Positions 4,847 through 48,359 of a stretch of 64,000 nt of DNA are shown here, piece after piece (the first letter of the stretch is position 1; each line of letters begins with the position of its first letter). The translations under genes were made by a program, and so were the position numbers. The notes beneath the pieces were generated by a model. It ran no database searches. It worked only from the letters and a program-made list of their open reading frames with translations, and was not told the origin of the DNA. This DNA comes from Chloroflexota bacterium (lineage in GTDB: Bacteria > Chloroflexota > Limnocylindria > Limnocylindrales > CSP1-4): NCBI GenBank assembly GCA_015478725.1, contig JADMIG010000001.1, positions 348,748 to 412,747 on the forward strand, in the 5' to 3' direction.

Positions 4847-5331
4847 CCCGATTGCTCGCCATCGACCTCGGCGAGCGCCGCATCGGGCTCGCCGTCGGGG
4901 ACGATCTGCGCGGCGGAGCCGTTCCGTTGACGACGGTCGCGCGCGGACGCTCCATCGCCGACGACGTCGCCACGCTCGGCCGGGTGGTCCAGCGGGAACG
5001 GATCGACGAGCTCATCGTGGGCCTGCCCATCGACACCGCGGGCACGGAGGGTGTCCAGGCCGACCGCACCCGCAGCTGGGCGGCGGCCGTCGCGGCAGAT
5101 CTCGACCGCCCGATCGCTTTCCGGGACGAACGATTCTCGAGCCGCATCGCCGAGGAGCGCCTCGGACCAATGCCGCGCGGCCGGTCCGGCGGTCCGCCGA
5201 CGGCGACGCAGCGCAACCGGTACCGGGCCCGCGTCGACCGCGAGGCGGCGGCGATCATCCTCGAGGCCGAGCTCCGCGCCCGCGCCGGGACCGCCCCGGC
5301 CCCGGCCCCGGTGGGAGGCACCGAGCGATGA
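4843..5331 (+). CDS. ruvX: Holliday-junction resolvase-like nuclease YqgF/RuvX
   Basis: N-terminus LLAIDLGERRIGLAVGDD is the YqgF signature. It lies in the conserved alaS-ruvX-mltG neighbourhood. Confidence 0.85.
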   Translation: MTRLLAIDLGERRIGLAVGDDLRGGAVPLTTVARGRSIADDVATLGRVVQRERIDELIVGLPIDTAGTEGVQADRTRSWAAAVAADLDRPIAFRDERFSSRIAEERLGPMPRGRSGGPPTATQRNRYRARVDREAAAIILEAELRARAGTAPAPAPVGGTER

Positions 5332-6695
5332 CGATCCGACGGGGCGGCCCGCCCCGCGGCCGCGCGGATGCGGCCCCCGACCAGGCGCACGTCGTCGGTG
5401 GCGTCGACGGCGTCGACCGCACGATCGAACGCCCGCCCGCCCGGGACCGGCGTGATCGCCGACGACCGACGGGTGGCGGAGGTCGCGGTGGGTTCGGCGG
5501 GCTGGTCCGCTTCGTCGCCTTCGCCCTCGTCCTCGGCGCCGTCGTCCTCGTCGGCCTCGTCACGGTCCTCCGACCGGTCGCGGCGGGAGCGATCGTCGGC
5601 TGGGCGTCTGACAACCCGACCGCGCTCGGCATCCCGTTCGTCGCGGATCTCGTCCGCGAGGATCTCGGCGCCTCCCTCACGGCGGCCCCGAGCACGGACG
5701 CGACGGAGGTCGACTTCATCGTCGCGCCCGGCGACACGGCCCGCGGGATCGCGGCGCGACTCCAGACCCAGGGCCTCCTGATCGATGCCCGAGCCTTCGT
5801 GTTCACCGCGATCGAGCGAAGTCTGACGAGCAAGCTCGAGGCCGGAACGTTCATCCTGCGCCGCAACATGACGCCCGACCAGCTCGTCACGGCGCTCCTC
5901 CAGGCGAAGAGCCTCGCCATCGACATCTCGTTCCGCGAGGGTCTCCGGGTCGAGCAGATGGCCGCCAAGCTCGAGACGCTGCCAGTCACGCTGGACCCGA
6001 AGCAGTTCTACGACCTCGCGATGCACCCGACCGCCTCGATCCTCGCCGCCCATCCATGGCTGCAGCTGCCGAAGGGCGCCTCGCTCGAGGGGTTCCTCTA
6101 CCCGGCGACGTACCAGGTGCTTCCCTCGATCACGCCGGAGCAGCTCATCGGCAAGATGCTCGATGCGTTCTACACGCAGGTCGGACAGGCGCGCGTCGCC
6201 GTCCCGGCGAGCCGCGGCCTCACGTTCTACCAGGTCGTGACGATGGCCTCGCTCGTCGAGCAGGAGGCGAGGCTCGACGCCGAACGGCCGCTCATCGCCG
6301 GCGTCTTCCAGAACCGGCTCGACCCGAAGCTCTTCCCGACCCGCCTGCTCCAGTCGGACACGACGATCTTCTACATCAACGACACCGTCCAGCTCGCGAA
6401 GATCCCGTTCGCGGCGTGGGCCCAGTACTCGTTCTGGGGCCCGTTGACGGCACCGATCAAGGATTCGAGCGTCTCACCGGCGCTCGCCAAGTACGACACG
6501 TACACGGCTCCGGGACTCATGCCGGGGCCGATCTGCTCGCCCTCGCTTGCATCGATCGACGCCGTGCTCCATCCGGACACCGCGACCGGCTACCTCTATT
6601 TCGTGGCCAGGAACGACGGCTCGAACACCACCGCGTTCGCGAGGACGCTCGCCCAGCACGAGATCAACGTCCGCAAGTACAGCAGCGCGCCCTGA
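5328..6695 (+). CDS. mltG: endolytic murein transglycosylase MltG (YceG family)
   Basis: ATGA overlap with ruvX. It has an N-terminal TM segment and a YceG-like domain (motifs such as LYFVARNDGS, TLAQHE). Conserved synteny after ruvX. Confidence 0.8.
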   Translation: MTIRRGGPPRGRADAAPDQAHVVGGVDGVDRTIERPPARDRRDRRRPTGGGGRGGFGGLVRFVAFALVLGAVVLVGLVTVLRPVAAGAIVGWASDNPTALGIPFVADLVREDLGASLTAAPSTDATEVDFIVAPGDTARGIAARLQTQGLLIDARAFVFTAIERSLTSKLEAGTFILRRNMTPDQLVTALLQAKSLAIDISFREGLRVEQMAAKLETLPVTLDPKQFYDLAMHPTASILAAHPWLQLPKGASLEGFLYPATYQVLPSITPEQLIGKMLDAFYTQVGQARVAVPASRGLTFYQVVTMASLVEQEARLDAERPLIAGVFQNRLDPKLFPTRLLQSDTTIFYINDTVQLAKIPFAAWAQYSFWGPLTAPIKDSSVSPALAKYDTYTAPGLMPGPICSPSLASIDAVLHPDTATGYLYFVARNDGSNTTAFARTLAQHEINVRKYSSAP

Positions 6696-13361: not shown

Positions 13362-15124
13362 ACTCCGGCGCGCGGTCACGGCGGCCGGACCCGAGCGTCG
13401 CCGAGGTCGAGGATGGTCCGACGGCGGCCGCCGGTCGCCTCCTCGAGCTGACCGTCACTGACCTCGCCCTCCTCGAGCGGCTGAGGCTGGAGCTCGGCCC
13501 CGGTCTCAATGTCGTCACCGGCGAGACCGGCGCCGGAAAGAGCCTCGTGATCGACGCGCTCGGACTCGTGCTCGGTGCCCGCGCGGATCCCGGGCTCGTC
13601 CGTCATGGCTCGAGCGTGGCCCGGGTGGAGGCGCTGTTCGACCGGCTGCCGGAGCCGCTCATCGTCGTCCGCGAGGTCACCGCCGCGGGTCGCTCCACCG
13701 CCCGCCTGGACGACGAGGCCGTGACCGCGGCACGGCTCGGCGAGACGGTGGGTCCGCTCGTCGAGATCCACGGGCAGCACGACCAGCAGCGGCTGCTCGA
13801 CGAGCGGTGGCAGCGGGAGCTGCTCGATGCGGCCGGCGGTCACGCCGACGTTCGGGCGGCGTTGGCCGCCGCGGTGCTCCGCTGGCGGGAGAACCGCGCC
13901 GCGATCGCGGATCTCGCGATCGAACCCGCCGAGCTCGCCCGCCGTCTCGAGATCGCCGAGCACGAGGCGTCGGAGATCGCGGCCGCGCACCTCCGGGCTG
14001 GCGAAGCCGCCGAGCTCGAGGCCCGGCTCGACCTGGCCCGCCACGGCGAGACCATCGCGAGCGGCGTGGCGGCCCTCCGCGAGACGATCGCAGGCGATGG
14101 CAGCGGTGCCCGCGAGGGACTGGCGGTCGCCGCTCGCGAGGCCCGCCAGCTCGGTCGAGTCGACGCGCGATTCCTCGCGGTCGCCGAGCGGCTCGAGGGG
14201 ACGGTCGCCGACCTCGACGACCTCGGCCGGGAGTTGCCGCTCCTCGCCGACGAGGCGGTGAACGACGCAGGGGCGATCGACGCGCTCCAGGAACGCCGAT
14301 CGCTCATCTATCGCCTGGAGCGACGCTACGGCGGCGACGAGGCGGAAGTGCTCGCCCACGGATCGCGCGCGATGATCGAGCTCGAACGGCTCCGCGGCGT
14401 CGAGATCGAGCGGGCGCGCCGCGTCGCGGACGATGCCGGACTCCTCGCCGCGGTGGCCGCCGCCGCGGCGGAGCTCTCCGTCCGCCGGCGAACTGCTGCC
14501 GACCGACTCGCACCGGAGGTCGGTCGCGCGCTCGAGGCGCTCGGCTTCCCGCCGTCGGCGTTCGAGATCGCGATCGGCAGGCGCGTCGCGGCACCGGACG
14601 AGGCTGCCGTCGAGCTCGACGGGGACGCCGTCGCGTTCGACCTGTCGGGCGTCGACCTCGTCGTGTTCCGGTTCGCCCCGAACGCGGGCGAACCAGCCCG
14701 GCCGCTCGCGCGGATCGCGTCCGGGGGCGAGGCGAGCCGGGTCGCGCTCGCGATCCGGACCGTCCTCGCCCGTGCCGATGAGACGCCGACACTCGTCTTC
14801 GACGAGATCGACACGGGGATCGGCGGCCGCGGCGCGGACCCGGTCGGGCGGAGCCTCTGGGCGCTCGGCCGTCGACACCAGGTCGTCTGCGTCACCCACC
14901 TGCCGCAGATCGCGGCTCACGCCGACGAGCATTTCCGCATCCTCAAGCGTGAACGCGACGGTCGAACGGTGACCGAGATCGAGCGGCTCGATCGAGAGGG
15001 TCGGATCGTGGAGCTCGCGGCGATGCTCGCCGGTCCGGGCGGCGGCGCAGCCGCACTCGCCGGCGCCCGTGAGCTCCTCGATCGTGCGGAGGCAGCCCGC
15101 GTGCGGCCGTCCGATGCCGGCTGA
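13358..15124 (+). CDS. recN: DNA repair protein RecN
   Basis: Walker A LNVVTGETGAGKS, long coiled-coil, C-terminal signature. GTG overlaps the nadK stop; the true start may be slightly downstream. Confidence 0.85.
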   Translation: MNSGARSRRPDPSVAEVEDGPTAAAGRLLELTVTDLALLERLRLELGPGLNVVTGETGAGKSLVIDALGLVLGARADPGLVRHGSSVARVEALFDRLPEPLIVVREVTAAGRSTARLDDEAVTAARLGETVGPLVEIHGQHDQQRLLDERWQRELLDAAGGHADVRAALAAAVLRWRENRAAIADLAIEPAELARRLEIAEHEASEIAAAHLRAGEAAELEARLDLARHGETIASGVAALRETIAGDGSGAREGLAVAAREARQLGRVDARFLAVAERLEGTVADLDDLGRELPLLADEAVNDAGAIDALQERRSLIYRLERRYGGDEAEVLAHGSRAMIELERLRGVEIERARRVADDAGLLAAVAAAAAELSVRRRTAADRLAPEVGRALEALGFPPSAFEIAIGRRVAAPDEAAVELDGDAVAFDLSGVDLVVFRFAPNAGEPARPLARIASGGEASRVALAIRTVLARADETPTLVFDEIDTGIGGRGADPVGRSLWALGRRHQVVCVTHLPQIAAHADEHFRILKRERDGRTVTEIERLDREGRIVELAAMLAGPGGGAAALAGARELLDRAEAARVRPSDAG

Positions 15125-16100
15125 GCTCGGCGCGCCTCCCTCGCTGGACGCGGCGATCGACGAGTATCTCGACCACCTCCGGGTCGAGCGCGGCCTGTCC
15201 GGCGCGACCATCGTCGCCTACCGCAACGATCTCTCGGCCTTCGCCACGTCGGCGTTCGCGTCCGACCGCTGGGGGAGCACGCCCGACGAGGCGGTCCGCT
15301 ACCTCGCCTCGCTCGGCACGCCGCCGCGCGGGGCGATCCGCCCGGCCCTTGCGTCGTCGAGCCGGCGACGCCGCACTGCCGCGCTGCGGGGGTTCTATCG
15401 GTTCGCCTACGGCGAGGGCCGGGCGACGGCGGACGTGGCGACACACCTGGACCTGCCGCGCCAGGCTCGCTATCTTCCGCACACCCTGAGCAGCGACGAG
15501 GTCGTCCGGCTCCTCGAGGTCGTGGGCGGCGAGGCGGCCCCGTCCGGCGAGGCGGGCGATGGCCGAGCCGCGCTCGAGGCGAGGCGCGCCGTCCGCGACC
15601 GGGCGCTCGTCGAGCTGCTCTACGCCGCCGGCCTCCGGGTGAGCGAGGCGCTGCGGCTCGACGCGGACGACCTGTCCCTCGACGGTGCCTACGTCCGGGT
15701 CGTCGGCAAGGGCGACCGCGAGCGCCTCGTCCCGGTCGGCGAGGTCGCGATCTCCTGGCTCGGCCGATATCTCGCCGAGGTCCGACCCACCTGGCTCGTG
15801 GGTGGAGCGGACCTTGTCCATGGTGGACCGGTCTTCGTCACGGACCGGGGTGGGCGGCTCGGCCGCCAGGCGGCGTGGGCGACCGTGAAGCGCGCGGCCT
15901 CGGCTGCCGGACTCGGCGACCGCGTCTCCCCACACACGTTCCGCCACTCATTCGCGACGCATCTCCTCGAGGGCGGAGCGGACCTGCGGATCGTCCAGGA
16001 GTTGCTCGGCCATGCGACCATCAGCACGACACAGCTGTACACACACCTGACCGGCGAGCGGATCAGGGAGGTGTACGCCCGCGCCCACCCGCGCGCCTGA
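15114..16100 (+). CDS. xerD: site-specific tyrosine recombinase XerD
   Basis: N-terminal SAM-like DEYLDHLRVERGLS...AYRNDL and a C-terminal catalytic domain (HTFRHSFATHLLEGGADLRIVQELLGHATISTTQLYTHL). Conserved after recN. Confidence 0.85.
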   Translation: MPAELGAPPSLDAAIDEYLDHLRVERGLSGATIVAYRNDLSAFATSAFASDRWGSTPDEAVRYLASLGTPPRGAIRPALASSSRRRRTAALRGFYRFAYGEGRATADVATHLDLPRQARYLPHTLSSDEVVRLLEVVGGEAAPSGEAGDGRAALEARRAVRDRALVELLYAAGLRVSEALRLDADDLSLDGAYVRVVGKGDRERLVPVGEVAISWLGRYLAEVRPTWLVGGADLVHGGPVFVTDRGGRLGRQAAWATVKRAASAAGLGDRVSPHTFRHSFATHLLEGGADLRIVQELLGHATISTTQLYTHLTGERIREVYARAHPRA

Positions 16101-21806: not shown

Positions 21807-22769
21807 ATGGGCAGCGTCACCGGGATCACGATCGCGAAGCGGACCGGCTTCTGTTACGGCGTCCGTGAGGCGATCGACCGGGCCAAGGAGTCCTCGGCGG
21901 CCGGCCGGACCACGTCGACCCTCGGCCAGGTGGTCCACAACGAAGGGGTCATCGCCGAGCTCGAGGCGCTCGGGATTCGGACCGTCGATTCGCTCGACGA
22001 CGTCGATCACGGCGCGGCGGTCGTCATCCGCGCGCATGGGGTGCGACCCGGGGTGATGGAGCGGGCTGCCGCGCGCGGCCTCGACGTCATCGACGGCACC
22101 TGCACCTGGGTCATCCAGGAGCAGCGCGAGCTCGTCCGCCTCGTCGAGGAGGGCTACACGATCGTCCTGCTCGGCACGCCGAAGCACCCCGAGGTCGTCG
22201 GCCTCCTCGGCTTCGCGCCGGACGCGATCGTCGTGGACGAGGAGGACGACTGGGCGCGGATCCCCCGGCGCAAGAAGATGGCGCTCATCAGCCAGAGCAC
22301 CCAGCCGCCGTGGAAGTTCGAGAAGCTCGCCGCCTACATGGTCGGCCGCAGCCACGAGCTGAAGATCGTCAACACCGTCTGCCCGGTGACGATCCGGCGC
22401 CAGGAGGACACGCTCGAGACCGCCGGGGCGGTCGACCTCATGGTCGTCGTCGGCGGGCGGAGCAGCGCGAACACCAAGGAGCTGACGCGACTCTGCGGCA
22501 TCGTCGGCACGCCGGCGATCCAGGTCGAAGGCGTCCGCGATCTCGACGACCCGGCACCGTTCGTCGGCGCCCGGATCGTCGGCATCACCGGTGGGACGAG
22601 CACCCCGATCGAGGACCTCCGCGCCGTCGCCCGGCGGGTCCTCGAGCTCGCCGGCACGCCAGACGTGATCGCCCATGCGGACGAGCTCGCCCTCGCGGCC
22701 CTCGCCGCGGCGGCGACCCCTGCCGGCCGGACCACCTCGCTCCCGAGCGCCACCGCCGGCGCGGCATAG
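21807..22769 (+). CDS. ispH: 4-hydroxy-3-methylbut-2-enyl diphosphate reductase
   Basis: IspH/LytB motifs ([22 protein letters not shown], conserved Cys triad). Confidence 0.9.
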
Positions 22770-22780
22770 GCGGCCGGTCC

Positions 22781-24403
22781 ATGGCCGCCCTGCCGATCGT
22801 CGCCATCGTCGGCCGCCCGAACGTGGGCAAGAGCACGCTCTTCAACCGGATCCTCGGCGCACGGACGGCGATCGTCGAGGATCGGGCGCGGACGACACGC
22901 GACCGGCTGTACGGTGACGCCGAATGGAACGGTCGGCGGTTCATCGTCGTCGACACCGGGGGCCTCGAGGCGGACCCGGGCGACCCGATCGAAGCGAAGG
23001 TCCAGGAGCAGGCCCGTCTCGCGATCGCCGAGGCGGACGTCATCGTGTTCGTCGTGGATGCCGCGACCGGGCTAGCCCCGGCCGATGTCGACACCGCCGA
23101 CCTTCTTCGCCGGGCGACGGCGCCCGTCCTCGTCGCGATCAACAAGGCGGACAACGAGCGTCGCGAGCTCGAGGGCGCGGAGTTCTACGCGCTCGGCTGG
23201 GACGAGACCTATCCGATCAGCGCCGCGCACGGCCGGGGGACCGGCGACCTCCTCGACGCCGTCGTCTGGGCACTCCCGCCGGAGACGCCGGAGGAGCTCG
23301 CCCGGAAGTCCCGCGAGGCGGAGGCGGATCGGTGGGCGCGGGACGTCGCGGCGGGCCACCTCGAACCGATCCTCGCCGAGGGGCCCGACGGTGCGACGCC
23401 GATGGTGGACGACGATGGAGACGACGTCGGCGGCGACGAGATCGAGGCCCGTCGCTGGGACGCCGCGATGGCTGCCGACGCCGATTCGGGTCCCGCCGCG
23501 ATCGCCCTCGTCGGGCGCCCGAACGTCGGCAAGTCGAGTCTCCTCAACGCCCTGCTCGGGGAGGACCGGGCGATCGTCACCGACATCCCGGGCACGACGC
23601 GGGATGCCATCGACACCCGCCTCGCCTGGGGTCGGAGCGAAGTCGTCCTCATCGACACGGCCGGGATGCGCCGCCGTGGCAAGGTGGCCACGGGGTCGGC
23701 GACGGATCGCTATTCGACGCTGCGCGCGCTGCGGGCGATCGGCCGGGCGGACGTCGCGATCCTCGTCATCGATGCGGTCGAGGGGATCACCGCCCAGGAC
23801 GCCCACGTGGCGGGGTACGTCGTCGAGGAGGGCAAGGGCCTCGTCGTCGCGGTGAACAAGTGGGATCTCGTCGCGGACAAGACGGACAAGACGTTCGAGC
23901 AGTATGTCGAGTGGATCCATCACGAGGCGCCATTCCTCGACTTCGCGCCCATCCTCAGCATCAGTGCGAAGACCGGCCAGCGAGTCGGCCGCGTCCTCGA
24001 GGCCGCCGTGGACGTCTGGGGCGAGCGCCGTCGTCGGGTGCCGACAGCCGAGCTCAACCGGCTCGTCGCCGCCGCGTCGGATCGCCAGCTCCCGCCGGTC
24101 GTCAAGGGTCGACGACCGAAGATCTTCTACGCGACGCAGGCCGCCGTGGCGCCGCCGACGTTCGTCTTCTTCGCGAACGACGCGGCGTCGGTTCACTTCA
24201 GCTACCGCCGCTACCTCGAGAACCGCCTGCGCGACGCCTTCGGCTTCCTCGGCACTCCCGTGCGCCTCGTGTTCCGCGACCGAAGCTCGGTGAAGCTGCC
24301 GCGTCGTCGGCCCGCACGCGCTCCCGGACGACGCGCAGCCGGCGGTCGGCCGACGCCCGGCCGCTTACCGTCTCCCCGCGATACCGGTCGCGCGGACCGC
24401 TGA
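22781..24403 (+). CDS. der: ribosome-associated GTPase Der (EngA), two G-domains + KH-like
   Basis: Two GxxxxGKS P-loops ([28 protein letters not shown]) separated by an unusually long acidic linker. ATG at M158 of the ORF. Confidence 0.85.
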
Positions 24404-24460
24404 ACCGGGCGATCCTGTCCAGCGGTGCGACCGTCGGGCGGTGGTAGACTGCCGGCCTGT

Positions 24461-24537
24461 CGGGGCGTGGCGCAGCCTGGTAGCGCACCTGAATGGGGTT
24501 CAGGAGGCCGAGCGTTCGAATCGCTCCGCCCCGACCA
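24461..24537 (+). tRNA. tRNA-Pro (anticodon GGG)
   Basis: 77 nt cloverleaf. Acceptor CGGGGCG/CGCCCCG, D-arm GCGC-AGCCTGGTA-GCGC, anticodon stem CCTGA/TCAGG with loop ATGGGGT (GGG), T-arm GAGCG-TTCGAAT-CGCTC, discriminator A, CCA. Confidence 0.85.
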
Positions 24538-24654
24538 GCGATCTGAGCACGCAACGGCCTTTCCGAGCGTCCCGGATAGGCCTGCACGCGGAGCGAGACC
24601 GGACGCACGATCAACCCAGCGTGGCTGACCGGCACGGCAGACAGAGGCATCGCG

Positions 24655-24933
24655 ATGCGGATGCTGAGAAGTCCCTGGACTCGTGCATTCCTTGTCTGGA
24701 CCGTCATGCTCCTGGCCGCGGCGGTGCTGGTTGCCCTCGACGCCGTGATCGGGCTCCTCCGAGCCGACGAGGCGTGCTACTTCCAGGTCGGTCCCTGTCC
24801 GCAGGCGGGGGATCCTGACCTCGTCCAACTGGACTTCGCCTTCTTCGGGATTCCGCTGATCTGGCTCGTGGGAGTCCTGCTCGGCGTCGTTGGTCGGGCG
24901 CTGACACGGCGAAGCCGAACTGCCGCTCCCTAG
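24655..24933 (+). CDS. small membrane protein (92 aa, 2 predicted TM helices), uncharacterised
   Basis: ORF with two hydrophobic helices, located immediately inside the islet. Confidence 0.35.
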   Translation: MRMLRSPWTRAFLVWTVMLLAAAVLVALDAVIGLLRADEACYFQVGPCPQAGDPDLVQLDFAFFGIPLIWLVGVLLGVVGRALTRRSRTAAP

Positions 24934-25148
24934 ACCGACCGCGTTGACGACGTTCAGGTCGCCGAGGGAGTCCACTGGCCCCGTTCCAAGAGAGGAGCGC
25001 CGCGCCGACCCCTGATGAGTGTCGCGGAGAGCCCCTTGTTGATCCGCTCGAGAAGGTGGTCCTTGTCGAGCGGCCCCGCGATCGAGCGCTCCAGTCCGCA
25101 ACCGGTCTCCAGGCACGCCACTGCGGCACCGCCTGCGGCGGAAGCTGG

Positions 25149-26105
25149 TCACGCGGACGCGAGGACCGCTCGGAGCAGGAGCCCGGCGTTCCGCGGCGTT
25201 TCGCCGACCCGTCGGATCGCGTAGGGCCACCACGAGCTGCCGAACGGCAGGTAGAGTCGGAGCCGCTCACCCCGCTCCACGAGCGCGTCCTGCAGCGGCG
25301 GCCGCACGCCGTACAGCATCTCGAACTCGTAACCGCCGGCAGGCCATCCGTTTCGCCTCGCTGCCGCCCGGATCTCTCGGATCAGTCGCACATCGTGGGT
25401 GGCAAAGATCGGATAGAAGCCTGCCTCGCGCGCTTCGGGCGCGAGCATCAAGCCCGCCGCCCGCAGATACCGGCGACCGATCTCCGGCCTGCGCGTCGAG
25501 GCGAGCCGTGGCGGCTCGCCCAGGGCGCCCTTGACGAGGCGAACCGCTCCGCCGGGAGTCACGCAGCGGCGCACGTCGGCCTCGTAGCGATGCAGATATG
25601 CCTGGAGCGTGATGGCCGCCGGCAGCGAAGCGGCCCGCAGATCCGCGTACAGCCCGATGGTCGCGTCGGTCGCCGACGAATCCTCCATGTCGAGCATCAG
25701 GTAGCGCCGTTGCACGTCCGTCGCACCGCCTGTTGCGGCAACGGCGCGACCGAGCTCGAACACGTTCGCCCGGCAGGTCGCCTCGTCGATCATCAAGCCC
25801 ACAGCGGTTGGATCAACCGAGACATGGACATCGAGCCTCGCCCGGGCGAGTTCGTACACCGCCGCCTTCAGCTCGTTCATCGTCCGGGCGACGGTGGCAG
25901 GGTCGTCGACGTATTCGCCGAGGTAGAAGAGGGAGCAGAGGCGGCCGCGTTGCCGCAGGTCTGCCGCCGTCTGGATCGCCTCGGCGAGGTTGTCGCCGCC
26001 GACGAAGCGCCGGGCGAGCGCGGACAGCGCGGAACGACGGTGCATGAACATGGTCAATGGCTCGTTTCGTGCCAGCGCGATCATCGCGCGCTGCCAGAGT
26101 CCCAT
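25149..26105 (-). CDS. proline dehydrogenase (monofunctional PutA-like PRODH, TIM-barrel)
   Basis: PRODH motifs throughout (LMLDMEDSS, LQAYLHRYE, VRLVKGA, IFATHD, FEMLYGVR). 318 aa. Confidence 0.75.
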   Translation of the reverse strand: MGLWQRAMIALARNEPLTMFMHRRSALSALARRFVGGDNLAEAIQTAADLRQRGRLCSLFYLGEYVDDPATVARTMNELKAAVYELARARLDVHVSVDPTAVGLMIDEATCRANVFELGRAVAATGGATDVQRRYLMLDMEDSSATDATIGLYADLRAASLPAAITLQAYLHRYEADVRRCVTPGGAVRLVKGALGEPPRLASTRRPEIGRRYLRAAGLMLAPEAREAGFYPIFATHDVRLIREIRAAARRNGWPAGGYEFEMLYGVRPPLQDALVERGERLRLYLPFGSSWWPYAIRRVGETPRNAGLLLRAVLASA

Positions 26106-26266
26106 CGTGGGGCGGTCTCCTGCGGTTGACGCGGGCGAGATGGTACATCCGGAAAGGAGGTTCTCTCGGGGCGGCCCGGGGTGCGGTAGATTCCGCCCAT
26201 GGGGGTGACCAAGATCGAGTCCTGCCGTGTCGACCCCGAAGCTCCGCCGCTTCGGGCGCTGGCGCG

Positions 26267-26875
26267 ATGACGCCGACCGAGTACCGCTGTGCCTCGTGCG
26301 GCGGCCCTCCCCGCGATGAAGATCGCTTCCAGTGCGCCGACTGCGGCCGCCCGCTCGGCATCTGCGCCGACTGCGGCTGGTGCGTCCGGTTCTTCGCGAG
26401 CGACAACCCGGTGGACTGCGATGGGTGCGGCTTCGCCCCGCTGTCTCACGAAGAGGAGGAAGGGAACAGATCGTTTCGCGAACACATGATCGCAGCTCTT
26501 CGGCGACAGATGGAGGCGCTCAAGCAGATGCAGGAGCGCTCGGGGCCGATCTACGAACTCGCCCGCGAACGGAGCCGGATCATCAGCGAGGCATACCGAT
26601 CCGCCGGACGACCGCGGAAGGTGAGTCTGACGCGCACCCCCGAAGGGTGGGAGTACGTATTCCATTTCCGTCGTGGGAGCGAGTGGCACCGGGAACCTGC
26701 CACCAAGGAAGACGCGGACGCTTGGTACGCGTGGTGGCGCGAACGCGACCGCCTCCGTCGCGCGTTGGGGAGCCATCGCGGGCAGGGGACCGGCCCACCC
26801 GGCAAAGCCCCTGTCGCTGAGCCTCGCCCAACCGCGACTCCCGATCAATGGGGCGACGGAGGGTCCCGTGTCTGA
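26267..26875 (+). CDS. uncharacterised Zn-ribbon protein (four CxxC pairs) with coiled-coil/Trp-rich C-terminal region
   Basis: CASCGG...CADCGRPLGICADCGWC...CDGCGF. ATG at M71 of the ORF avoids overlap with PRODH. Confidence 0.45.
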   Translation: MTPTEYRCASCGGPPRDEDRFQCADCGRPLGICADCGWCVRFFASDNPVDCDGCGFAPLSHEEEEGNRSFREHMIAALRRQMEALKQMQERSGPIYELARERSRIISEAYRSAGRPRKVSLTRTPEGWEYVFHFRRGSEWHREPATKEDADAWYAWWRERDRLRRALGSHRGQGTGPPGKAPVAEPRPTATPDQWGDGGSRV

Positions 26876-26953
26876 CCGCGCGGCAACGTGCGTCCCAGAC
26901 GTGGCCGTGGCCTCTCCCGAATGCATGGACGCGGCCTTGCGAGGTGCCGTCTG

Positions 26954-27487
26954 ATGGCGTGGCGGTGGCCGCTGGCCAGGCAGCTTGCCAAGTCGCGAGG
27001 GCTCATCGGTCGGCTGATCGCGGTCGCCCTGGTCGCCGCAGGTTGCACCACCGTGACCATCGTGGTGCCCACCACCCCGGCATCGCGCTCGCCTACGACC
27101 GTGACCGTCCCCCCATCAACGCCACGAGCCACCGAAGACCTCACTGCTGGAAGCCCGAGCCCGACGGCGCAGCTGACCTTCGTCCCGACTTCGTCGCCTC
27201 CCGGGCCGACCCCAGGGCTGATCGCCGGCATCTGCGCGGTCCGCCTCGAGCGGGGCGACACCGTAGTCGTGTTGCACGAACCGCTCGAGCCGGACCGCGC
27301 CAGTTGCAACTACCTAGCGGAGAACACACACTTGGCCATCGGGGGCAATTGGTCGATCGCTTTCGACGTACCGCTCGCCGATTCACTCGTATGCCGGGGC
27401 TATTTCGGCAACGCGGCGATCCCGTTCGACGTCTGGGACTCCGGCGATCACCACTGGGGCGATCTCGTATGCAAGGCCTACCGCTGA
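26954..27487 (+). CDS. putative lipoprotein (signal peptide with lipobox VAAGC), uncharacterised
   Basis: N-terminal basic region, then LIGRLIAVALVAAG-C, a Thr/Pro-rich linker and a Cys-containing domain. Confidence 0.45.
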   Translation: MAWRWPLARQLAKSRGLIGRLIAVALVAAGCTTVTIVVPTTPASRSPTTVTVPPSTPRATEDLTAGSPSPTAQLTFVPTSSPPGPTPGLIAGICAVRLERGDTVVVLHEPLEPDRASCNYLAENTHLAIGGNWSIAFDVPLADSLVCRGYFGNAAIPFDVWDSGDHHWGDLVCKAYR

Positions 27488-27603
27488 GCTGATCGTTGTT
27501 TGAGCGGGCCCTGGAAGAGCTGGAACGGCTCAAGCCTCCGAACGGACCTGCGGCTTGATACGACGGGCTCCTCCGGATGAGGAATGCGAACGGAGGAGGT
27601 CGA

Positions 27604-28086
27604 ATGAGGCTGCTCTGGGAGTGGCGCTGGCTCGTGGCCTGGTTCATGGCCTTCGCAGTGGTCGCGATCGGCACGGGACCTGACTCACCCGTGGGGCCGA
27701 TCTACGCGGGCCTCACAGGCCTGGGTCTGCTCTACCTCTGGGCACGGTGGGGAAGAGGTCTCGGCACGCTGACCTGGGAGCTTCAGGACGCTCTTGGTGC
27801 CTATTTCCAGTTGGGTGAGCAACTCGCCGAGCTTGTGGCGGCACCATCCGGTGGGCAGGAGCGCCTTCAGCGCTTGGACGCGCTTGCTGCCAAACGGCAC
27901 GCAGCCGAGGAGAAATTGGACGGGCTCCTCGGGCGATGGCCGCGGAACGCAGGGCTCGCGGGCCGCATCTTCCCCTCGTGGGGCCAATCCGTCGAGAGGA
28001 ACCTCGCCGTCGCGCTGCAGAGCCGACAGCGCGCTGCCCGAACGTACGATCTCATGGCAACTGCGATCGCACAGTCCGAGGTGTGA
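27604..28086 (+). CDS. uncharacterised membrane protein (2 TM helices + coiled-coil tail)
   Basis: Strong RBS GGAGGAGG 4 nt before the ATG. Hydrophobic N-terminus (LLWEWRWLVAWFMAFAVVAIG). Confidence 0.45.
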   Translation: MRLLWEWRWLVAWFMAFAVVAIGTGPDSPVGPIYAGLTGLGLLYLWARWGRGLGTLTWELQDALGAYFQLGEQLAELVAAPSGGQERLQRLDALAAKRHAAEEKLDGLLGRWPRNAGLAGRIFPSWGQSVERNLAVALQSRQRAARTYDLMATAIAQSEV

Positions 28087-28506
28087 GCGGCGACGTGTCG
28101 GGATCGGTCTGAGGCCTCGATCGCCTTGCAGCGGCGCTTCCGATCGATGAGCGAAGCATCGCAACCCGGTCCCGACAGCAGGCGCCACTGGCAGCGGCAG
28201 CCGATGTGTGGGTGCAAGCCCGGGAGTCAGCCGGGGGCTGAAAGGCGCCTGCTAGAGAGCGATGGGACGTGATCTGACTGATCGTGCGTAATGACCTGCT
28301 TGTGGGACGGTCCGGACGCGGCCCGCTCCGTGTCACGCCACCGATCGAATAAGGGACCAGCGCGGAGATGCCCTTTTCGAACGGGGGAGGCGACCCCCGG
28401 ACCGATTCCTCGCCAGCCGGACGGCATGCTGGTTGCGTCGTTCCGGTTGAGATCGACGCAGAACCGGCCGCTGCTGTTGGGTCGTCACTGACGGCAGGGC
28501 TCCCCT

Positions 28507-28530
28507 TTGACCCACAAGTTGACCCACAAG
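28507..28530 (+). repeat. perfect tandem 12-mer TTGACCCACAAG x2
   Basis: Read directly from the sequence. It lies about 80 nt upstream of the pseudo-tRNA repeat, in a 630-nt non-coding, lower-GC stretch. Confidence 0.7.
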
Positions 28531-28611
28531 GCCGCGGACGATGGGGGTCACAAGTGGACGCCGCGGACGGCTGTGGAGCACGAAAGCAGGGGTCTGAACA
28601 CCCCGAAAGTA

Positions 28612-28657
28612 CATGGGGTTCAGGAGGCCGAGCATGCGAATCGCTCCGCCCCGCCCA
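28612..28657 (+). repeat. pseudo-tRNA fragment: degenerate copy of the 3' 46 nt of tRNA-Pro (attR-like)
   Basis: catggggttcaggaggccgagcatgcgaatcgctccgccccgccca vs tRNA aatggggttcaggaggccgagcgttcgaatcgctccgccccgacca. It lacks the 5' half and the CCA end. Confidence 0.7.
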
Positions 28658-28718
28658 ACGATCGGCGACCGACGTGCGGAGGCACGTCCTCTGGGCCGAT
28701 CGTCAGCGCCGCCCCGGC

Positions 28719-29258
28719 CTACGGACCGGCTATGACCCCCGGTGCGGCAAGAACGTCGTTCGTGGCCCCGCCGGCCAGCGAACCGCTGAAACTGCCCATG
28801 ACGGCGCCGATCGAGCCGACCGCGGCCGAGGGCGACGCGGCGATGCCGATGCCGGTCACGATGATCGGCTCGATGTTCACCGTGTCCGAGTCGAGGATGT
28901 GGATCGTCAGCACGTTGGCGGCGATGGTCGCGGTCGCCCCGAGCGAGCCGGGCGACTTCGCCGTCGACGGGGAACCGGTGAAGGTCACCGTCGCGCCGGA
29001 GCCGGCGTGATCGGAGATCGTCACCTCGAAGGATCCGGGGCCTCTCCCGAACGCCGCGGGGCCCGCCTCGCCGAACGAGAGGACGAGGGTGGTTCCCGAC
29101 GATCCGCCACGCGGGACGGACCCGACGGCGGTGACGATGACCGTCGAGAACGCCGGTGGGGCCGCGCTCGGGGTCGCGACGCTCGGTGGCGGCGTGGGGC
29201 TGCTGCTGCACGCGGCCATCGTGACGATGAGCGCCAGGACGAGGAAGATGCGGGCCAT
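28719..29258 (-). CDS. putative lipoprotein (lipobox MAACS), Ser/Thr/Gly/Ala-rich
   Basis: MARIFLVLALIVTMAAC-SSSPTPPPS signal/lipobox, then low-complexity beta-rich sequence. Confidence 0.5.
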   Translation of the reverse strand: MARIFLVLALIVTMAACSSSPTPPPSVATPSAAPPAFSTVIVTAVGSVPRGGSSGTTLVLSFGEAGPAAFGRGPGSFEVTISDHAGSGATVTFTGSPSTAKSPGSLGATATIAANVLTIHILDSDTVNIEPIIVTGIGIAASPSAAVGSIGAVMGSFSGSLAGGATNDVLAAPGVIAGP

Positions 29259-29392
29259 CCGGCCAAGGGTACGCCAGTTGCTCCGGATCGAGCCTGGCCG
29301 GGGCTCATCCGCGGACGAAGCGCGGACGAATCACCGACGGCGGAGTACGCTGGCCGCAGGCGCGTTCAACCGTCGACACTTTGGAGGTCATC

Positions 29393-29581
29393 GTGGGTGC
29401 CCTGTCACCGATCCATCTCGTGATCATCCTCGTCGTCGCGCTCCTCATCCTCGGACCCGGCAAGCTTCCGGAGACCGGAGCGGCGCTCGGGAAGAGCATC
29501 CGCGAGTTCCGCGACGCGATCGGCGGCCGGGGTTCGGACACCGGGACCGCTGGACCGGGGGATCCGCCCGCCGCCTCCTGA
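29393..29581 (+). CDS. tatA: twin-arginine translocase subunit TatA/E
   Basis: GGAGG 5 nt before the GTG. TM helix then LGPGKLPETGAALGKSIREFRDA, the TatA hinge/amphipathic motif. The ORF-track TTG at 29381 is an alternative start. Confidence 0.8.
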   Translation: MGALSPIHLVIILVVALLILGPGKLPETGAALGKSIREFRDAIGGRGSDTGTAGPGDPPAAS

Positions 29582-29623: not shown

Positions 29624-30091
29624 TCAGGACGAGCGACGAAGAACGAAGCGGTCGAACTGGGCCGGCAGCCACCACTGGAGCCCGTAGATCCGGCAGCCGA
29701 GGCAGAAGCCGGTGACGGCGAGCGTCGCCTGCAGGGCGACGACGATCCCGACCGGGATCCATCCGAGCGACGATCCCGCCGCGAGGCCCAGCAGGCCGAT
29801 GGCGAGGGTCGCCGTCCCGAGGGCCTGGGCGAACCGCGGCCCGACCTCCGGTTCCAGGACGGCGGGAGGCCCGAGCCGGAGGCCGGATCTGACGAACAGC
29901 CACGGCCGGCTGAAGAGGAAGCGGCGCGTGCCGAACGCGGAACTCACGCCGAGCGCGACAGCCACGCCCGCGACGACGAGGGGAAGGCCGGCCGCGATGG
30001 ATGCGACGAGGACGATCGCGGACGCGCCCGCGCCGAAGCGCTGGCCGCGCGGATCGATGAGCCTGATGGGGGTCCGGGCAGGGATGGACAC
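29624..30091 (-). CDS. DUF4395-like integral membrane protein
   Basis: Multi-TM with a C-terminal CLGCRIYG motif. GTG start chosen at V61 of the ORF-track protein. Confidence 0.5.
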   Translation of the reverse strand: MSIPARTPIRLIDPRGQRFGAGASAIVLVASIAAGLPLVVAGVAVALGVSSAFGTRRFLFSRPWLFVRSGLRLGPPAVLEPEVGPRFAQALGTATLAIGLLGLAAGSSLGWIPVGIVVALQATLAVTGFCLGCRIYGLQWWLPAQFDRFVLRRSS

Positions 30092-30322
30092 GGGACGACT
30101 CCAGGATGCGAGGGGAGACCGTCGGCCCTCAGGGCCGAGGTGGGTGCTCTGGTCCGCGAGCCGGTTCGTCGCTGGCGGTCGGATCGACCGTCTGATCAGC
30201 GCGTCGCGGCTCGCTCCGGACAGGAGCACGGCCCGCCGTGTGTGCCGCGCCGGTCGGCGCCCATCGCCCACATCGCTCGACTCCGTCGGGTTGCGGAGGA
30301 GCGAAGGCGTGGCGCCAGGGCG

Positions 30323-30356: not shown

Positions 30357-30452
30357 TCGGATCAGCGCGAAGCGTAGGTGGGGTCAGCTCGGCCGTCAAC
30401 CCGACGGGCGCGCGGACGCACGGGTGCATAGGTGGCCCGATACGATGCAGGC

Positions 30453-31985
30453 ATGACGAGCGACGGCACCCGGCCCGGCGCGCCTGCCTCCTGGACGGAC
30501 GGGACCGGCGACATGGACCCGGCGTCGTTCCGCGCCGCCGCTCACGCGGTGGTCGATCTCATGGCGGACTACCTCGCCGGCGTCGAGCGCTATCCCGTCT
30601 TCCCGTCGATCGAGCCGGGAACGCTCGCACCGCTCTTCCCGCCGGCCGCGCCCGACGCGCCGGAGCCGATCGAGGCGATCCTCGACGACTACCGCCGGCT
30701 CGTCGAGCCGAACGCGACGCACTGGCAGCACCCCGGATTCCTCGCTTACTTCGCGACGACCGCGTCCGGGCCGGGGATCCTCGGGGAGATGCTCACCGCG
30801 GCCCTCGGCCAGAACCCGATGCTGTGGCGGACCTCGCCGATCGGCACGGAGCTCGAGGAAGTCGTCGTCCGCTGGCTGCGCGACGCGCTCGGCCTCCCGG
30901 CCACGTTCGACGGCCTCCTCACGGACACCGCATCCACTTCCACGCTCATCGGCCTTGCCGGTGCCCGCCAGGCGGCCGGCCTCGACGTCGCCGCGGCGGG
31001 ACTCGCCGGTCGGAGCGAGGTGCCCGCGCTCCGTGTCTATGCGTCACGGGAGGCGCATTCGTCCATCGAGAAGGCACTGATGACCCTCGGCCTCGGCCGG
31101 GCCAGCCTCGAGCGGATCCCGACGGACGCCGGATATGCGATGGACGTCGAGGCGCTCGAGCGGGCGATCGCCCTGGATCGCGGCGGTGGGCGCCGTCCCA
31201 TCGCCGTCGTCGCCACGATCGGGACCACCTCGTCGACCGCCATCGATCCCGTCGCCGCGATCGCCGCGGTGGCCGAGCGCGAAGGGCTGTGGCTCCATGT
31301 CGACGCGGCGTATGCCGGTCCGATCGCCCTGATCCCCGATCGCCGCGGCCCGTTCGCCGGCTGGGAGCGCGCCGACTCGATCGTCGTGAACCCGCACAAG
31401 TGGCTGTTCACGCCGCTCGACGCCTCGCTTCTCCTCAGCCGCCGGATGGACGTCCTCCGCGACGCGTTCAGCCTCGTCCCGGAATACCTGCGCACGCTCG
31501 ACCGGACGAACGCGGTCCACGACTACAACGAGTACACCCCGCAGCTCGGTCGCCGCTTCCGGGCGCTCAAGCTCTGGATGCTCCTCCGCGCCTTCGGACT
31601 CGACGGGCTGCGCCGCCGGCTCATCGCGCACTGCGAGCTCGCGGCGGCTTTCGCGGGCTGGATCGATGCCGAGCCGGGATGGGAGCGTCTCGCTCCCGTC
31701 CCGTTCTCGACGGTCTGCTTCCGGCACGTGCCGGAAGCGCGTGACGGCGTTGCGGCGGACGGCGGCGACGGCGGCGGCGGTCACGTCGCGCTCGATGCGC
31801 ACAACGCGGCGCTCATGGATGCGGTGAACCGCAGCGGCGAGGTGTTCCTGTCCCACACCCGGCTCGACGGACGCTTCACGATCCGCCTCGCGATCGGCAA
31901 CGTCCGGACGGAGGAACGGCACGTCCGCCGGGCGTGGGATCTGCTCCGCCGGGAGGCCGCGAGGCTCACCGCGGCAGCGCGCTAG
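30453..31985 (+). CDS. pyridoxal-phosphate-dependent group II amino-acid decarboxylase (aromatic-L-amino-acid/glutamate decarboxylase family)
   Basis: Group II DC motifs (HVDAAYAGPIALIP, NPHKWLFTPLDASLL with PLP-binding Lys). An alternative GTG lies at 30432. Confidence 0.8.
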   Translation: MTSDGTRPGAPASWTDGTGDMDPASFRAAAHAVVDLMADYLAGVERYPVFPSIEPGTLAPLFPPAAPDAPEPIEAILDDYRRLVEPNATHWQHPGFLAYFATTASGPGILGEMLTAALGQNPMLWRTSPIGTELEEVVVRWLRDALGLPATFDGLLTDTASTSTLIGLAGARQAAGLDVAAAGLAGRSEVPALRVYASREAHSSIEKALMTLGLGRASLERIPTDAGYAMDVEALERAIALDRGGGRRPIAVVATIGTTSSTAIDPVAAIAAVAEREGLWLHVDAAYAGPIALIPDRRGPFAGWERADSIVVNPHKWLFTPLDASLLLSRRMDVLRDAFSLVPEYLRTLDRTNAVHDYNEYTPQLGRRFRALKLWMLLRAFGLDGLRRRLIAHCELAAAFAGWIDAEPGWERLAPVPFSTVCFRHVPEARDGVAADGGDGGGGHVALDAHNAALMDAVNRSGEVFLSHTRLDGRFTIRLAIGNVRTEERHVRRAWDLLRREAARLTAAAR

Positions 31986-47474: not shown

Positions 47475-47550
47475 GCCCCCGTAGCTCAGTGGATAGAGCG
47501 AGGCCGTCCTAAGGCCTGCGTCGGCGGTTCGAGTCCGTCCGGGGGCGCCA
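47475..47550 (+). tRNA. tRNA-Arg (anticodon CCT)
   Basis: 76 nt. Acceptor GCCCCCG/CGGGGGC, D-arm GCTC-AGTGGAT-AGAGC, anticodon stem AGGCC/GGCCT with loop GTCCTAA (CCT), T-arm GGCGG-TTCGAGT-CCGTC, discriminator G, CCA. A 7-bp hairpin (CCGTGTG...CACACGG) follows about 8 nt downstream. Confidence 0.8.
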
Positions 47551-47684
47551 CGAACGATCCGTGTGTCCAGCCACACGGTCTTCGCACAGACAGTTGCGCG
47601 GATGAGGTGCAGACTATGGAGGCGCCTGGGTCGTCGAGGATCTGAACCACCCGCCAGGCATCGCTCGAGAGTTCGTGAAGCACG

Positions 47685-48359
47685 ATGAGCAACTACCAGG
47701 TCGAACCCGCATCTCGCCCGCAGGCGGTGACGGAAGCAGCGATCAAGGCCCGTCGCGACGGGCAGGTCCAGGGCATCTCCCGCCGGACGCTTCTCCGTCG
47801 TTCACTCGGAGGCGGGATCGCCCTCTGGTTGTTCGAACTCGGCGCCGGCACGATCGGTTTCCTCTGGCCGAGCCTGGCCGGTGGCTTCGGTGGGGTCTTC
47901 ACGCTCGGCACCATCGACGACGCTGCGAGGACGATGGACACGATCGGGACCCAGTTCAAGGACGGCGCGCCAGCCCATTTCCTTGCCGCGCAGGCATTCG
48001 TCATGCTCATCAACCCTGACGTCTACAAGTTCATCCCGGGTGCCAGCCCGGAGGGCGACGGTGCGGCGACGAACGTGCGGACGCTCTGGCATCGCTGTAC
48101 GCATCTCGGCTGCACGCCGAACTTCTGCCCCTCGAATTTCTGGTTCGAGTGCCCCTGCCATGGATCGCGCTACGACCGCCTCGGCATCAAGATCCTCGGC
48201 CTGGGGCCCGCACCGCGGAGCCTTGACCGCTTCGCCTCGACGGTCGACGCCAAGGGGGTCCTGACAGTCGATACGGGCAAGATCACCCTCGGCCCTCTGC
48301 CGATCGCCCTCGGCCAGCCGGGCGTCATCCCGGCCACGTCGCCGGTCAGCTGTCTCTGA
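47685..48359 (+). CDS. Rieske [2Fe-2S] protein with Tat signal (cytochrome bc1/b6f iron-sulfur-subunit-like)
   Basis: RRTLLRRSLGGG twin-arginine motif plus a TM helix. Rieske boxes CTHLGC and CPCHGS. Confidence 0.8.
   Translation: MSNYQVEPASRPQAVTEAAIKARRDGQVQGISRRTLLRRSLGGGIALWLFELGAGTIGFLWPSLAGGFGGVFTLGTIDDAARTMDTIGTQFKDGAPAHFLAAQAFVMLINPDVYKFIPGASPEGDGAATNVRTLWHRCTHLGCTPNFCPSNFWFECPCHGSRYDRLGIKILGLGPAPRSLDRFASTVDAKGVLTVDTGKITLGPLPIALGQPGVIPATSPVSCL

Follow-up and report, generated by a model that had tools for sequence, protein, structure and literature searches.

A 4.1-kb islet at tRNA-Pro(GGG) in a Limnocylindria genome, probably the remnant of an integrase-mediated insertion

Limnocylindria are an abundant, uncultured class of soil and freshwater bacteria. 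Among described integrative elements, pSAM2 of actinomycetes targets tRNA-Pro, with an identity segment that runs from the anticodon loop to the 3' end of the gene, and carries int, xis, rep and transfer genes. Cis-mobilizable elements (CIMEs) were first described beside ICESt1 and ICESt3 of Streptococcus thermophilus; it is also familiar that islands and islets can lose their integrase, and these go unreported by tools whose search depends on that gene. According to the Islander principle, a regenerated tDNA and a displaced fragment of it mark the ends of an island, and attP sites centred on the anticodon form a recognised class; the Islander algorithm looks for an integrase gene inside the island (PMC4383910). 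Within the 64-kb window, by which we mean the whole stretch of DNA analysed here, we describe an insertion at tRNA-Pro with exact ends, a defined polarity and a foreign composition, in which the searches reported below detected no recombinase.

Direct repeat and empty site at tRNA-Pro

The tRNA-Pro(GGG) gene is intact (Table 1), and a repeat search showed that its 3' part together with 6 trailer bases recurs downstream as a direct repeat of 51 nt (47/51 identical, spacing 4120), the portion within the tRNA being 45 nt long with 3 mismatches. The repeat starts at the first anticodon-loop base (ATGGGG...), the 5' half of the gene being absent from the distal copy, and shuffled sequence gave 0 matches as good. 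Its first 21 nt are perfect between the copies, constitute the longest exact run and cover the anticodon loop, in which the crossover is expected. The distal copy was not called as a tRNA by ARAGORN or Rfam and showed no cloverleaf when folded. Another tRNA gene in the window, tRNA-Arg(CCT) at 47475, is not accompanied by a comparable half-repeat.

Table 1. Features of the islet and its junctions (positions are those of the window)
Feature	Position	Strand	Evidence
tRNA-Pro(GGG), intact	24461-24537	+	ARAGORN; Rfam RF00005, 60.3 bits; cloverleaf fold
attL identity block	24493-24543	+	51-nt direct repeat; equals the overlap of both L097 alignments
tRNA trailer and hairpin	24538-24585	+	Trailer alignment; L097 junction comparison; fold
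Small protein, 92 aa, two predicted membrane helices	24655-24933	+	ORF with coding GC-frame pattern
Monofunctional proline dehydrogenase (ProDH), 318 aa	25149-26105	-	PF01619, E 1.6e-23; NF045947, E 2.3e-49
Cys-rich zinc-ribbon protein, 202 aa from conserved start	26267-26875	+	Homolog motifs; GC-frame pattern
Putative lipoprotein, 177 aa, signal peptide and Cys	26954-27487	+	Near-orphan
160-aa protein, two N-terminal membrane helices	27604-28086	+	ORF and gene call
Non-coding right arm of element	28087-28612	.	No credible ORF; no family match
attR, displaced tRNA-Pro 3' half and native trailer	28613-28663	+	Repeat; shuffles; L097 comparison

The empty site is present in a very close relative, L097 (NCBI assembly GCA_030841365.1; Der 97% identical), whose gene order is der, tRNA-Pro and then directly a homolog of the lipoprotein gene found at 28719 in the window. 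Positions 1-2185 of L097 align to 22359-24543 of the window with 95% identity and positions 2135-2638 to 28613-29117 with 89% identity; what they share is precisely the 51-nt repeat, a segment that is single-copy in L097, so that the window carries an exact 4120-bp insertion bounded by a 51-nt duplication. In L081, which is less closely related (Der 84%), both flanks are likewise collinear and the 4.8 kb from 24539 to 29324 are missing. In all 80 related loci, the islet genes are absent from this site, and the distance between the tRNA-Pro and PLP decarboxylase genes, where both are present, ranges from 0.33 to 8.7 kb. L049 has its own copy of the 3' half about 0.9 kb downstream of tRNA-Pro, starting at the equivalent anticodon-loop base. 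The tRNA-Pro site is thus a hotspot of integration with repeated decay; the islet itself was not found elsewhere in the homolog and related-locus searches made.

The tRNA-Pro(GGG) gene is the target (attB), regenerated at the left junction, and its 3' half is identical to that of the tRNA in L081 and L097. The trailer at attR (CCA followed by ACGATC...) is the native trailer of L097, while that at attL (CCA followed by GCGATCTGAGCACG...) differs from it. Compared with the native tRNA of L097, attR shows three differences (T-stem G>A, T-loop T>G and discriminator A>C), and three of the four repeat mismatches are such attR-specific changes, which break the T-arm and the discriminator base. Since attR keeps the native trailer of the relative and has acquired three disabling changes, it is the 3' half that first belonged to the gene and was then displaced, in agreement with the integrase model, and this copy is decaying. 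The trailer and hairpin at the left junction resemble the trailers and terminator hairpins native to other Limnocylindria, unlike those of L097, and would have been brought in by the element. A Logan contig of about the length of the islet (L002, 4117 bp) was considered as a possible excised circle and rejected, since it is linear, corresponds to 24822-28939 of the window and crosses attR into the lipoprotein gene.

The original prediction had described a repeat of 46 nt with 4 mismatches in the same orientation, attL lying within the tRNA and the displaced copy being attR. This was essentially correct except for the extent of the repeat, as identity continues 6 nt beyond the tRNA end, and the comparison of the trailers with L097 fits the proposed polarity. 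The arrangement in L097 is also the empty site that had been envisaged, with tRNA-Pro directly preceding the homolog of the lipoprotein gene.

Integrase-bearing elements at the same site and the right arm of the islet

The 36-kb IMG/VR contig IMGVR_UViG_3300046482_000026 contains a 44/44-nt match to the 3' half of tRNA-Pro with the same ATGGGG start base. This attP core has a PF00589 tyrosine integrase gene 60 nt to its right and is flanked on both sides by TTGTCCCGTCGT-type short repeats. In L031, an integrase gene lies about 390 nt after tRNA-Pro; searched against viral contigs, its product gave one distant match only (26% identity). Integrase-bearing elements therefore use the same tRNA-Pro site, and the match between attP and tRNA-Pro provides a host-virus link for the IMG/VR contig, a candidate cognate phage.

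The attP layout of this phage predicts the order tRNA, integrase ... arm repeats, 3' half for an integrated element, which matches the left end in L031 and the right end in the window. There, two perfect tandem 12-mers, TTGACCCACAAG, lie adjacent to each other at 28507-28530, about 85-105 nt before attR, and the 12-mer has no further exact copy in the window. By analogy, we regard them as candidate arm-type integrase-binding sites. No copy within 2 mismatches is present near attL, and a 9/13 arm-site match near ~24625 was judged too weak. Small ORFs in 28052-28491 had no Pfam or PHROG match.

Gene content and composition of the islet

The proline dehydrogenase is cargo of the islet. Its closest non-self homologs are just 65-75% identical and reside in ordinary chromosomal loci. 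Elsewhere, homologs adjoin P5C-dehydrogenase and aminotransferase genes, or PNPOx genes, and one adjoins a tRNA-Gly island; these are ordinary metabolic loci without an adjoining tRNA-Pro gene, and a functional tie between ProDH and tRNA-Pro was rejected on the basis of such neighbourhoods.

The zinc-ribbon protein belongs to a rare family (12 database matches), in which the motifs are conserved among the 11 homologs aligned; a fold search with its AF2 model returned no significant match. Homologs in other contigs occur within a defence island and immediately behind a serine resolvase, the homolog gene of one contig overlapping the stop codon of the resolvase gene. The relation of these homologs to defence genes elsewhere is one of proximity. 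An antisense ORF at 26081-26926, called in the public annotation, was rejected because the GC-frame pattern favours the plus-strand gene listed in Table 1. The 177-aa putative lipoprotein has two clear homologs and one marginal one (E 2e-5) among 1.8 billion representatives, and the gene of a 70%-identical homolog adjoins HTH_17 (Xis/AlpA-like) genes. Neither the 92-aa nor the 160-aa protein matched any family in Pfam, NCBIfam, PHROGs or PADLOC; the Logan assembly has a gene call over part of the former. The islet gave no hit in simple scans for promoters and terminators.

The composition of the islet is foreign. Its GC content is 0.677 versus 0.725 in the remainder of the window, no other stretch of 4125 nt within the 64 kb is as low, and its limits are sharp. 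The GC3 z-scores of the islet genes range from -1.0 for ProDH to -2.7 for the 160-aa protein and -2.8 for the 92-aa protein (GC3 0.76), while the lipoprotein gene just outside has a host-like value of +1.0.

No recombinase was found in the islet with Pfam, NCBIfam, PHROGs or PADLOC, or by tblastn with two integrases of the cognate type, those of the phage contig and L031 giving no match below E 0.1. When the ORFs of ten mobile or variable regions were compared with the islet by tblastn, only the att core and the zinc-ribbon gene matched, and the ORFs of the related phage contig matched nothing except the att core. No phage structural, replication, lysis or conjugation genes were found in the islet, the PHROGs scan being without meaningful match; PADLOC gave nothing below E 0.06, and known defence genes were not matched. 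The only recombinase encoded in the 64-kb window is a syntenic Xer at ~14973-16100, and no cognate integrase lies within the window.

These results are in line with the original prediction of a cargo made up of a small membrane protein, a ProDH and three same-strand genes, with no integrase, excisionase or transposase. The enclosed DNA had also been described as AT-richer than its surroundings, and GC and GC3 proved atypical exactly between the repeats, so that composition across the region is not uniform. The proximity of ProDH to tRNA-Pro, which had been taken for a coincidence, can be considered as such, given that the homolog loci are not next to tRNA-Pro.

Origin and fate of the islet and comparison with known systems

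We consider it probable that the islet results from an old tyrosine-integrase insertion at tRNA-Pro, the recombination module having been lost later. A mobile element with a heterobivalent tyrosine integrase would have recombined its attP, a copy of the tRNA-Pro 3' half from the anticodon loop and hence of the anticodon-centred class of tRNA sites, into the chromosomal tRNA-Pro(GGG). At the left junction (attL), DNA of the element would have restored the tRNA, and the original 3' half and its trailer would have been displaced 4120 bp downstream (attR). A later deletion may then have taken most of the element together with its integrase end, the lost end being expected directly beside the tRNA by analogy with the related phage and L031. 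What was left would be an immobile remnant of 4.1 kb encoding ProDH, a small membrane protein and three uncharacterised proteins, without a mobility function of its own and with cargo expression as its only likely effect on the host.

We infer the loss of the integrase rather than see it, because within the islet we could detect no pseudogene remnant of either an integrase or an excisionase. The original element presumably encoded its own integrase, and the present islet genes presumably belonged to it. However, the mild deviation of ProDH, together with its being a normal chromosomal gene elsewhere, suggests that part of the content could have entered secondarily. The lack of phage, conjugation and replication genes and of 12-mer repeats by attL also counts against an origin by insertion and decay.

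It is possible, although rather unlikely, that the islet is CIME-like or satellite-like and still mobile, its attL and attR still serving a phage or integrative element of the same site, whose integrase would act in trans or, after tandem accretion, in cis. CIMEs by definition lack integration and transfer genes and keep attL and attR (PMC6323972). The 21 nt at the expected crossover region are perfect in both copies of the repeat, two perfect candidate arm sites persist beside attR, and elements with integrases for the tRNA-Pro site exist in the lineage; moreover, since 64 kb of the genome are in view, an integrase could act in trans from outside. On the other hand, attR has three substitutions and a divergent trailer, arm-type repeats were not found on the attL side, and the Xer of the window is syntenic rather than cognate. 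In addition, L002, the single independent assembly, contains only the attR junction of the integrated state, and the searches made returned the same islet nowhere else. The original prediction had left the choice between a decayed or immobilised island and one mobilised in trans; both options stand, and we favour decay.

Loss rather than gain, in which the islet would be ancestral to the species group and L097 would have lost it by precise integrase-mediated excision, seems improbable. Such an excision would leave exactly the empty site of L097, and the decay of attR indicates that the insertion is not recent, but L081 and all other 79 related loci lack every islet gene, the composition is foreign, and gain in the lineage of the window requires one event while loss requires several. 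We give very little credence to a minimal hitch-hiking islet excised by the integrase of a Limnocylindria phage with the same tRNA-Pro site, with the zinc-ribbon protein as a new DNA-binding accessory factor of recombination or maintenance, an idea prompted by the conserved motifs of this protein, the lack of a fold relative and the overlap of a homolog gene with the stop codon of a resolvase gene. Finally, it is highly implausible that the repeat arose without site-specific recombination, either as a partial tRNA duplication, by chance or by replication, or as a chimera assembled at a tRNA-like sequence, even though the source contig is metagenome-assembled and the left junction lies outside L002. 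The attP of the integrase-bearing phage contig begins at exactly the anticodon-loop base at which the repeat begins, and the 3'-half copy in L049 at the equivalent base; common assemblers would not be misled by an exact run as short as 21 nt; the independent contig L002 reads through attR into the lipoprotein gene with 100% identity; and shuffling produced no such match.

Read as a decayed insertion, the islet is a genomic island of an ordinary, well-understood kind and calls for no new mechanism. It shares with pSAM2 the type of target and the extent of att identity but has none of its int, xis, rep and transfer functions, and the host phyla are unrelated. It resembles CIMEs in being flanked by att sites, in lacking integration, excision and transfer genes and in plausibly deriving by deletion from a larger element. 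In contrast to CIMEs, its att sites are partly decayed, no partner element is known in this genome, and the cognate elements detected look like a phage rather than an ICE. As to the competence of attL and attR for recombination, they agree over the first 21 nt and differ at 4 of the 51 positions, with candidate arm sites beside attR alone. Cryptic or remnant prophages show a similar decay by deletion after integrase-mediated insertion, and the same site is that of a related temperate-phage contig, although no islet gene rose above noise in PHROGs. Unlike the islands found by Islander, the islet has no internal integrase gene (PF00589, other than Xer), is very small (4.1 kb) and resides in an uncultured class (Limnocylindria, Chloroflexota). 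Like those of attP class 'A', it lies between an intact tDNA and a displaced 3' fragment of the same orientation, with identity starting in the anticodon loop, and it has a foreign composition and a relative whose site is empty. Its ends are exact and the empty site is seen in a close relative, so that it illustrates cleanly how a tRNA gene serves as an integration hotspot in Limnocylindria; it also shows a route by which a metabolic gene, here for proline dehydrogenase, can enter the accessory genome.

Half-tRNA repeat and empty site

A repeat search of the window, whose G+C content is about 72.5%, returned a single outstanding direct repeat: a 51-nt segment reaching from within the tRNA-Pro(GGG) gene into its trailer (24493-24543, here attL) recurs 4120 bp away at 28613-28663 (attR), with 47 of 51 positions identical. 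The identity extends from the first anticodon-loop base (ATGGGGTTCAGG...) through the tRNA 3' end plus 6 nt of trailer, and the 45 tRNA-internal nucleotides, which have three mismatches in the distal copy, never found a second match in shuffled sequence. The distal copy lacks the 5' half and gave no tRNA call, no Rfam tRNA match and no cloverleaf fold. The half-tRNA repeat of the original prediction is confirmed.

An empty site in a close relative, the comparison called for in the original prediction, provided the decisive result. The closest homolog of der (P0002, 97% identity) comes from a 2640-bp NCBI contig (L097, GCA_030841365.1), where tRNA-Pro(GGG) (2103-2179) is directly followed by a homolog of the lipoprotein gene at 28719 and the repeat segment occurs once. 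By blastn, positions 1-2185 of L097 aligned without gaps to 22359-24543 of the window (95.0% identity), and positions 2135-2638 to 28613-29117 (89% identity). The overlap of these alignments in L097 is exactly the 51 nt of the repeat, so the window carries a 4120-bp insertion with the duplicated target at its ends. The more distant relative L081 (Der 84% identical) is collinear on both sides and lacks all of 24539-29324.

Set against the native tRNA of L097, three of the four repeat mismatches (G>A in the T-stem, T>G in the T-loop and A>C at the discriminator) are changes found in the distal copy alone, and the fourth is the first trailer base, at which attL is the odd one out: after CCA, the trailer reads ACGATCC... 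in L097, ACGATCGG... at attR and GCGATCTGAGCACG... at attL. The distal copy is therefore the original 3' half, displaced and decaying, and the intact tRNA owes its 3' part and trailer to the element. Such an arrangement is the product of integrase-mediated integration into a tRNA gene, following the principle set out in PMC4383910. Empty site and polarity together support the predicted tRNA-targeting integrative element, with attL inside the tRNA and attR as the displaced copy.

The native trailer following attR (28664-28705) folds into a strong nested hairpin (z -2.2) that probably served the tRNA as its original terminator and now lies 4.1 kb away from it. The second tRNA of the window, tRNA-Arg(CCT) in the 47475-48359 region, is followed by a GC dip; no half-tRNA repeat was found there, and the next gene encodes an ordinary Rieske iron-sulfur protein.

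Composition and cargo of the islet

Features in and around the islet (window positions)
Feature	Coordinates	Strand	Match	Location
ispH	21807-22769			upstream
der	22781-24403			upstream
tRNA-Pro(GGG)	24461-24537	+	Rfam, 60.3 bits
92-aa protein, two membrane helices	24655-24933	+		islet
Doubtful ORF, 55 aa	24954-25121	-		islet
Proline dehydrogenase (ProDH)	25149-26105	-	PF01619, E 1.6e-23	islet
Cys-rich zinc-ribbon protein	26267-26875	+		islet
Putative lipoprotein	26954-27487	+		islet
160-aa membrane protein	27604-28086	+		islet
526 nt without credible gene	28087-28612			islet
Lipoprotein gene outside attR	28719-29258	-		downstream
tatA	29381-29581		PF02416	downstream
DUF4395 gene	29624-30271	-		downstream
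PLP-dependent decarboxylase gene	30432-31985			downstream

The islet is AT-richer than its surroundings, as had been noted (G+C of 0.677 versus 0.725 in the rest of the window), and has the lowest G+C of all 4125-nt stretches in the window. Relative to 38 other genes, GC3 z-scores were -2.8 for the small membrane protein, -2.7 for the 160-aa membrane protein, -2.6 for the zinc-ribbon protein, -1.6 for the islet lipoprotein and -1.0 for ProDH, versus +1.0 for the lipoprotein gene just outside attR. The repeats coincide with the edges of atypical composition. None of the islet ORFs matched integrase, excisionase, transposase, phage or defence families, so that the claimed lack of a recombinase held up. 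These data show an insertion with precise ends, a defined polarity and foreign composition, from which a recombinase is missing.

The best non-self matches of ProDH were only 65 to 75% identical, whereas housekeeping proteins of this genome have 95 to 97% relatives in the same database. Its homologs occupy ordinary chromosomal settings, next to aldehyde dehydrogenase and class-III aminotransferase genes (L088) or a PNPOx-family gene (L090 and L091), and one adjoins a tRNA-Gly island (L089); the adjacency of ProDH and tRNA-Pro is therefore a coincidence of insertion, as originally suspected. Among 1.8 billion representatives, the islet lipoprotein had two clear homologs and a marginal one. Only one of these is close (contig L098, 81-1570; 70% protein identity, and 77% DNA identity over 27017-27487). 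It adjoins a uracil-DNA-glycosylase-like gene and an HTH_17-type (Xis/AlpA-like) gene, and the opposite strand holds a second possible HTH_17-type gene; L098 and the window have no flanking sequence in common.

Public gene calling picked a 281-aa antisense ORF (26081-26926, minus strand), but two observations, the GC-frame pattern and an alignment of 11 conserved homologs, identify the plus-strand zinc-ribbon gene as the true one. This family is rare and has neither a Pfam domain nor a structural relative. One homolog directly follows a serine resolvase, whose stop codon overlaps its start codon (L095, 9306-10591), and another sits in a defence-gene island behind a NERD/Zn-ribbon protein (L092, 8987-10606), which hints at an accessory role tied to mobile elements. 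The neighbours of the islet-gene homologs differ in every case; as a whole, the islet is a patchwork of rare accessory genes.

The tRNA-Pro site in relatives and in a phage

After its top match, the nearest relatives of Der bear the names Candidatus Limnocylindria or Limnocylindrales. A metagenome scan with der yielded 80 loci. In 45 of these, tRNA-Pro(GGG) closely follows either der itself or a der-gpsA pair, as it does in L001, L003 and L004, which came from other searches. Between the tRNA and the conserved PLP-decarboxylase gene lie 0.33 to 8.7 kb of DNA with unrelated genes, and several metagenome contigs of this class end at or right after the tRNA (L010, L011, L023, L027, L055, L059, L071 and L073), suggesting that assemblies break there because strains differ downstream. 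The site is a strain-variable hotspot; islet proteins were found in none of these loci. As to gpsA, it lies between der and tRNA-Pro in more distant relatives (L003, 11697-12776; L004, 11653-12666) and is missing from this gap in the window (24403-24461), L081 and L097; gene order therefore changed within the class.

At locus L031, a minus-strand PF00589 tyrosine integrase lies some 390 nt beyond the tRNA. In L049 (3913-4894), a 3'-half copy of 45 nt with one indel lies about 0.9 kb downstream of the tRNA and begins at the corresponding base of the anticodon loop. This independent and still smaller remnant shows the same decay at the same hotspot in a second lineage. An IS-type rve transposase gene follows (5229-5987).

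An exact-pattern search across IMG/VR yielded a single contig, IMGVR_UViG_3300046482_000026 (36,296 bp; G+C of 0.66 over the 11 kb read), which carries only the 3' half of this tRNA (44 of 44 nt), starting at the same ATGGGG. The 3' end of a 332-aa PF00589 integrase lies 60 nt to the right of this attP and a small HTH gene to its left, both on the minus strand. TTGTCCCGTCGT-like repeats flank the att core, three on the left and two on the right, giving five TTGTCCCGT-type arm repeats in the attP region (contig 1800-3034). The att match provides a host assignment for this uncultivated virus. Elements of this lineage that bear integrases use the same tRNA sub-site.

If such an attP integrated, the expected order would be tRNA, integrase (reading toward it), the rest of the element, HTH gene, arm repeats and, at the far end, the displaced 3' half. 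L031 agrees with the start of this order at its left end. The right end of the window agrees with its close: TTGACCCACAAG occurs at 28507-28530 as a perfect tandem pair and nowhere else in the window in exact form. Allowing two mismatches, the window has five matches to TTGACCCACAAG versus about one expected. The integrase expected beside attL is missing, and the phage and L031 integrases matched no remnant in the islet.

Origin of the islet

We consider it likely that the islet is a stranded remnant: the element would at first have encoded its own integrase next to attL, and a deletion would later have removed that gene. On the main rival reading, less likely from the 64 kb of the window, the islet may yet be mobile, in trans or in cis, as a cis-mobilizable element (CIME) is; by definition, CIMEs retain attL and attR but no longer have genes for integration and transfer (PMC6323972). 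However, attR has decayed, arm sites are missing at attL, and the databases searched held no second copy of the islet. Loss from L097 by precise excision would be a less economical account than gain in the window, given that the islet genes are also absent from L081 and every other relative. Misassembled junctions are unlikely, since an independent Logan contig (L002) crosses attR with 100% identity and the two repeat copies share no exact run longer than 21 nt.

The interest of the islet is modest and lies mainly in the documentation of a hotspot, the match of a phage with a host from an uncultured class and a rare family of zinc-ribbon proteins. The feature is genuine and was correctly interpreted as the islet of a tRNA-targeting element without a recombinase; integrase-less islets at tRNA integration hotspots are of a well-known kind.
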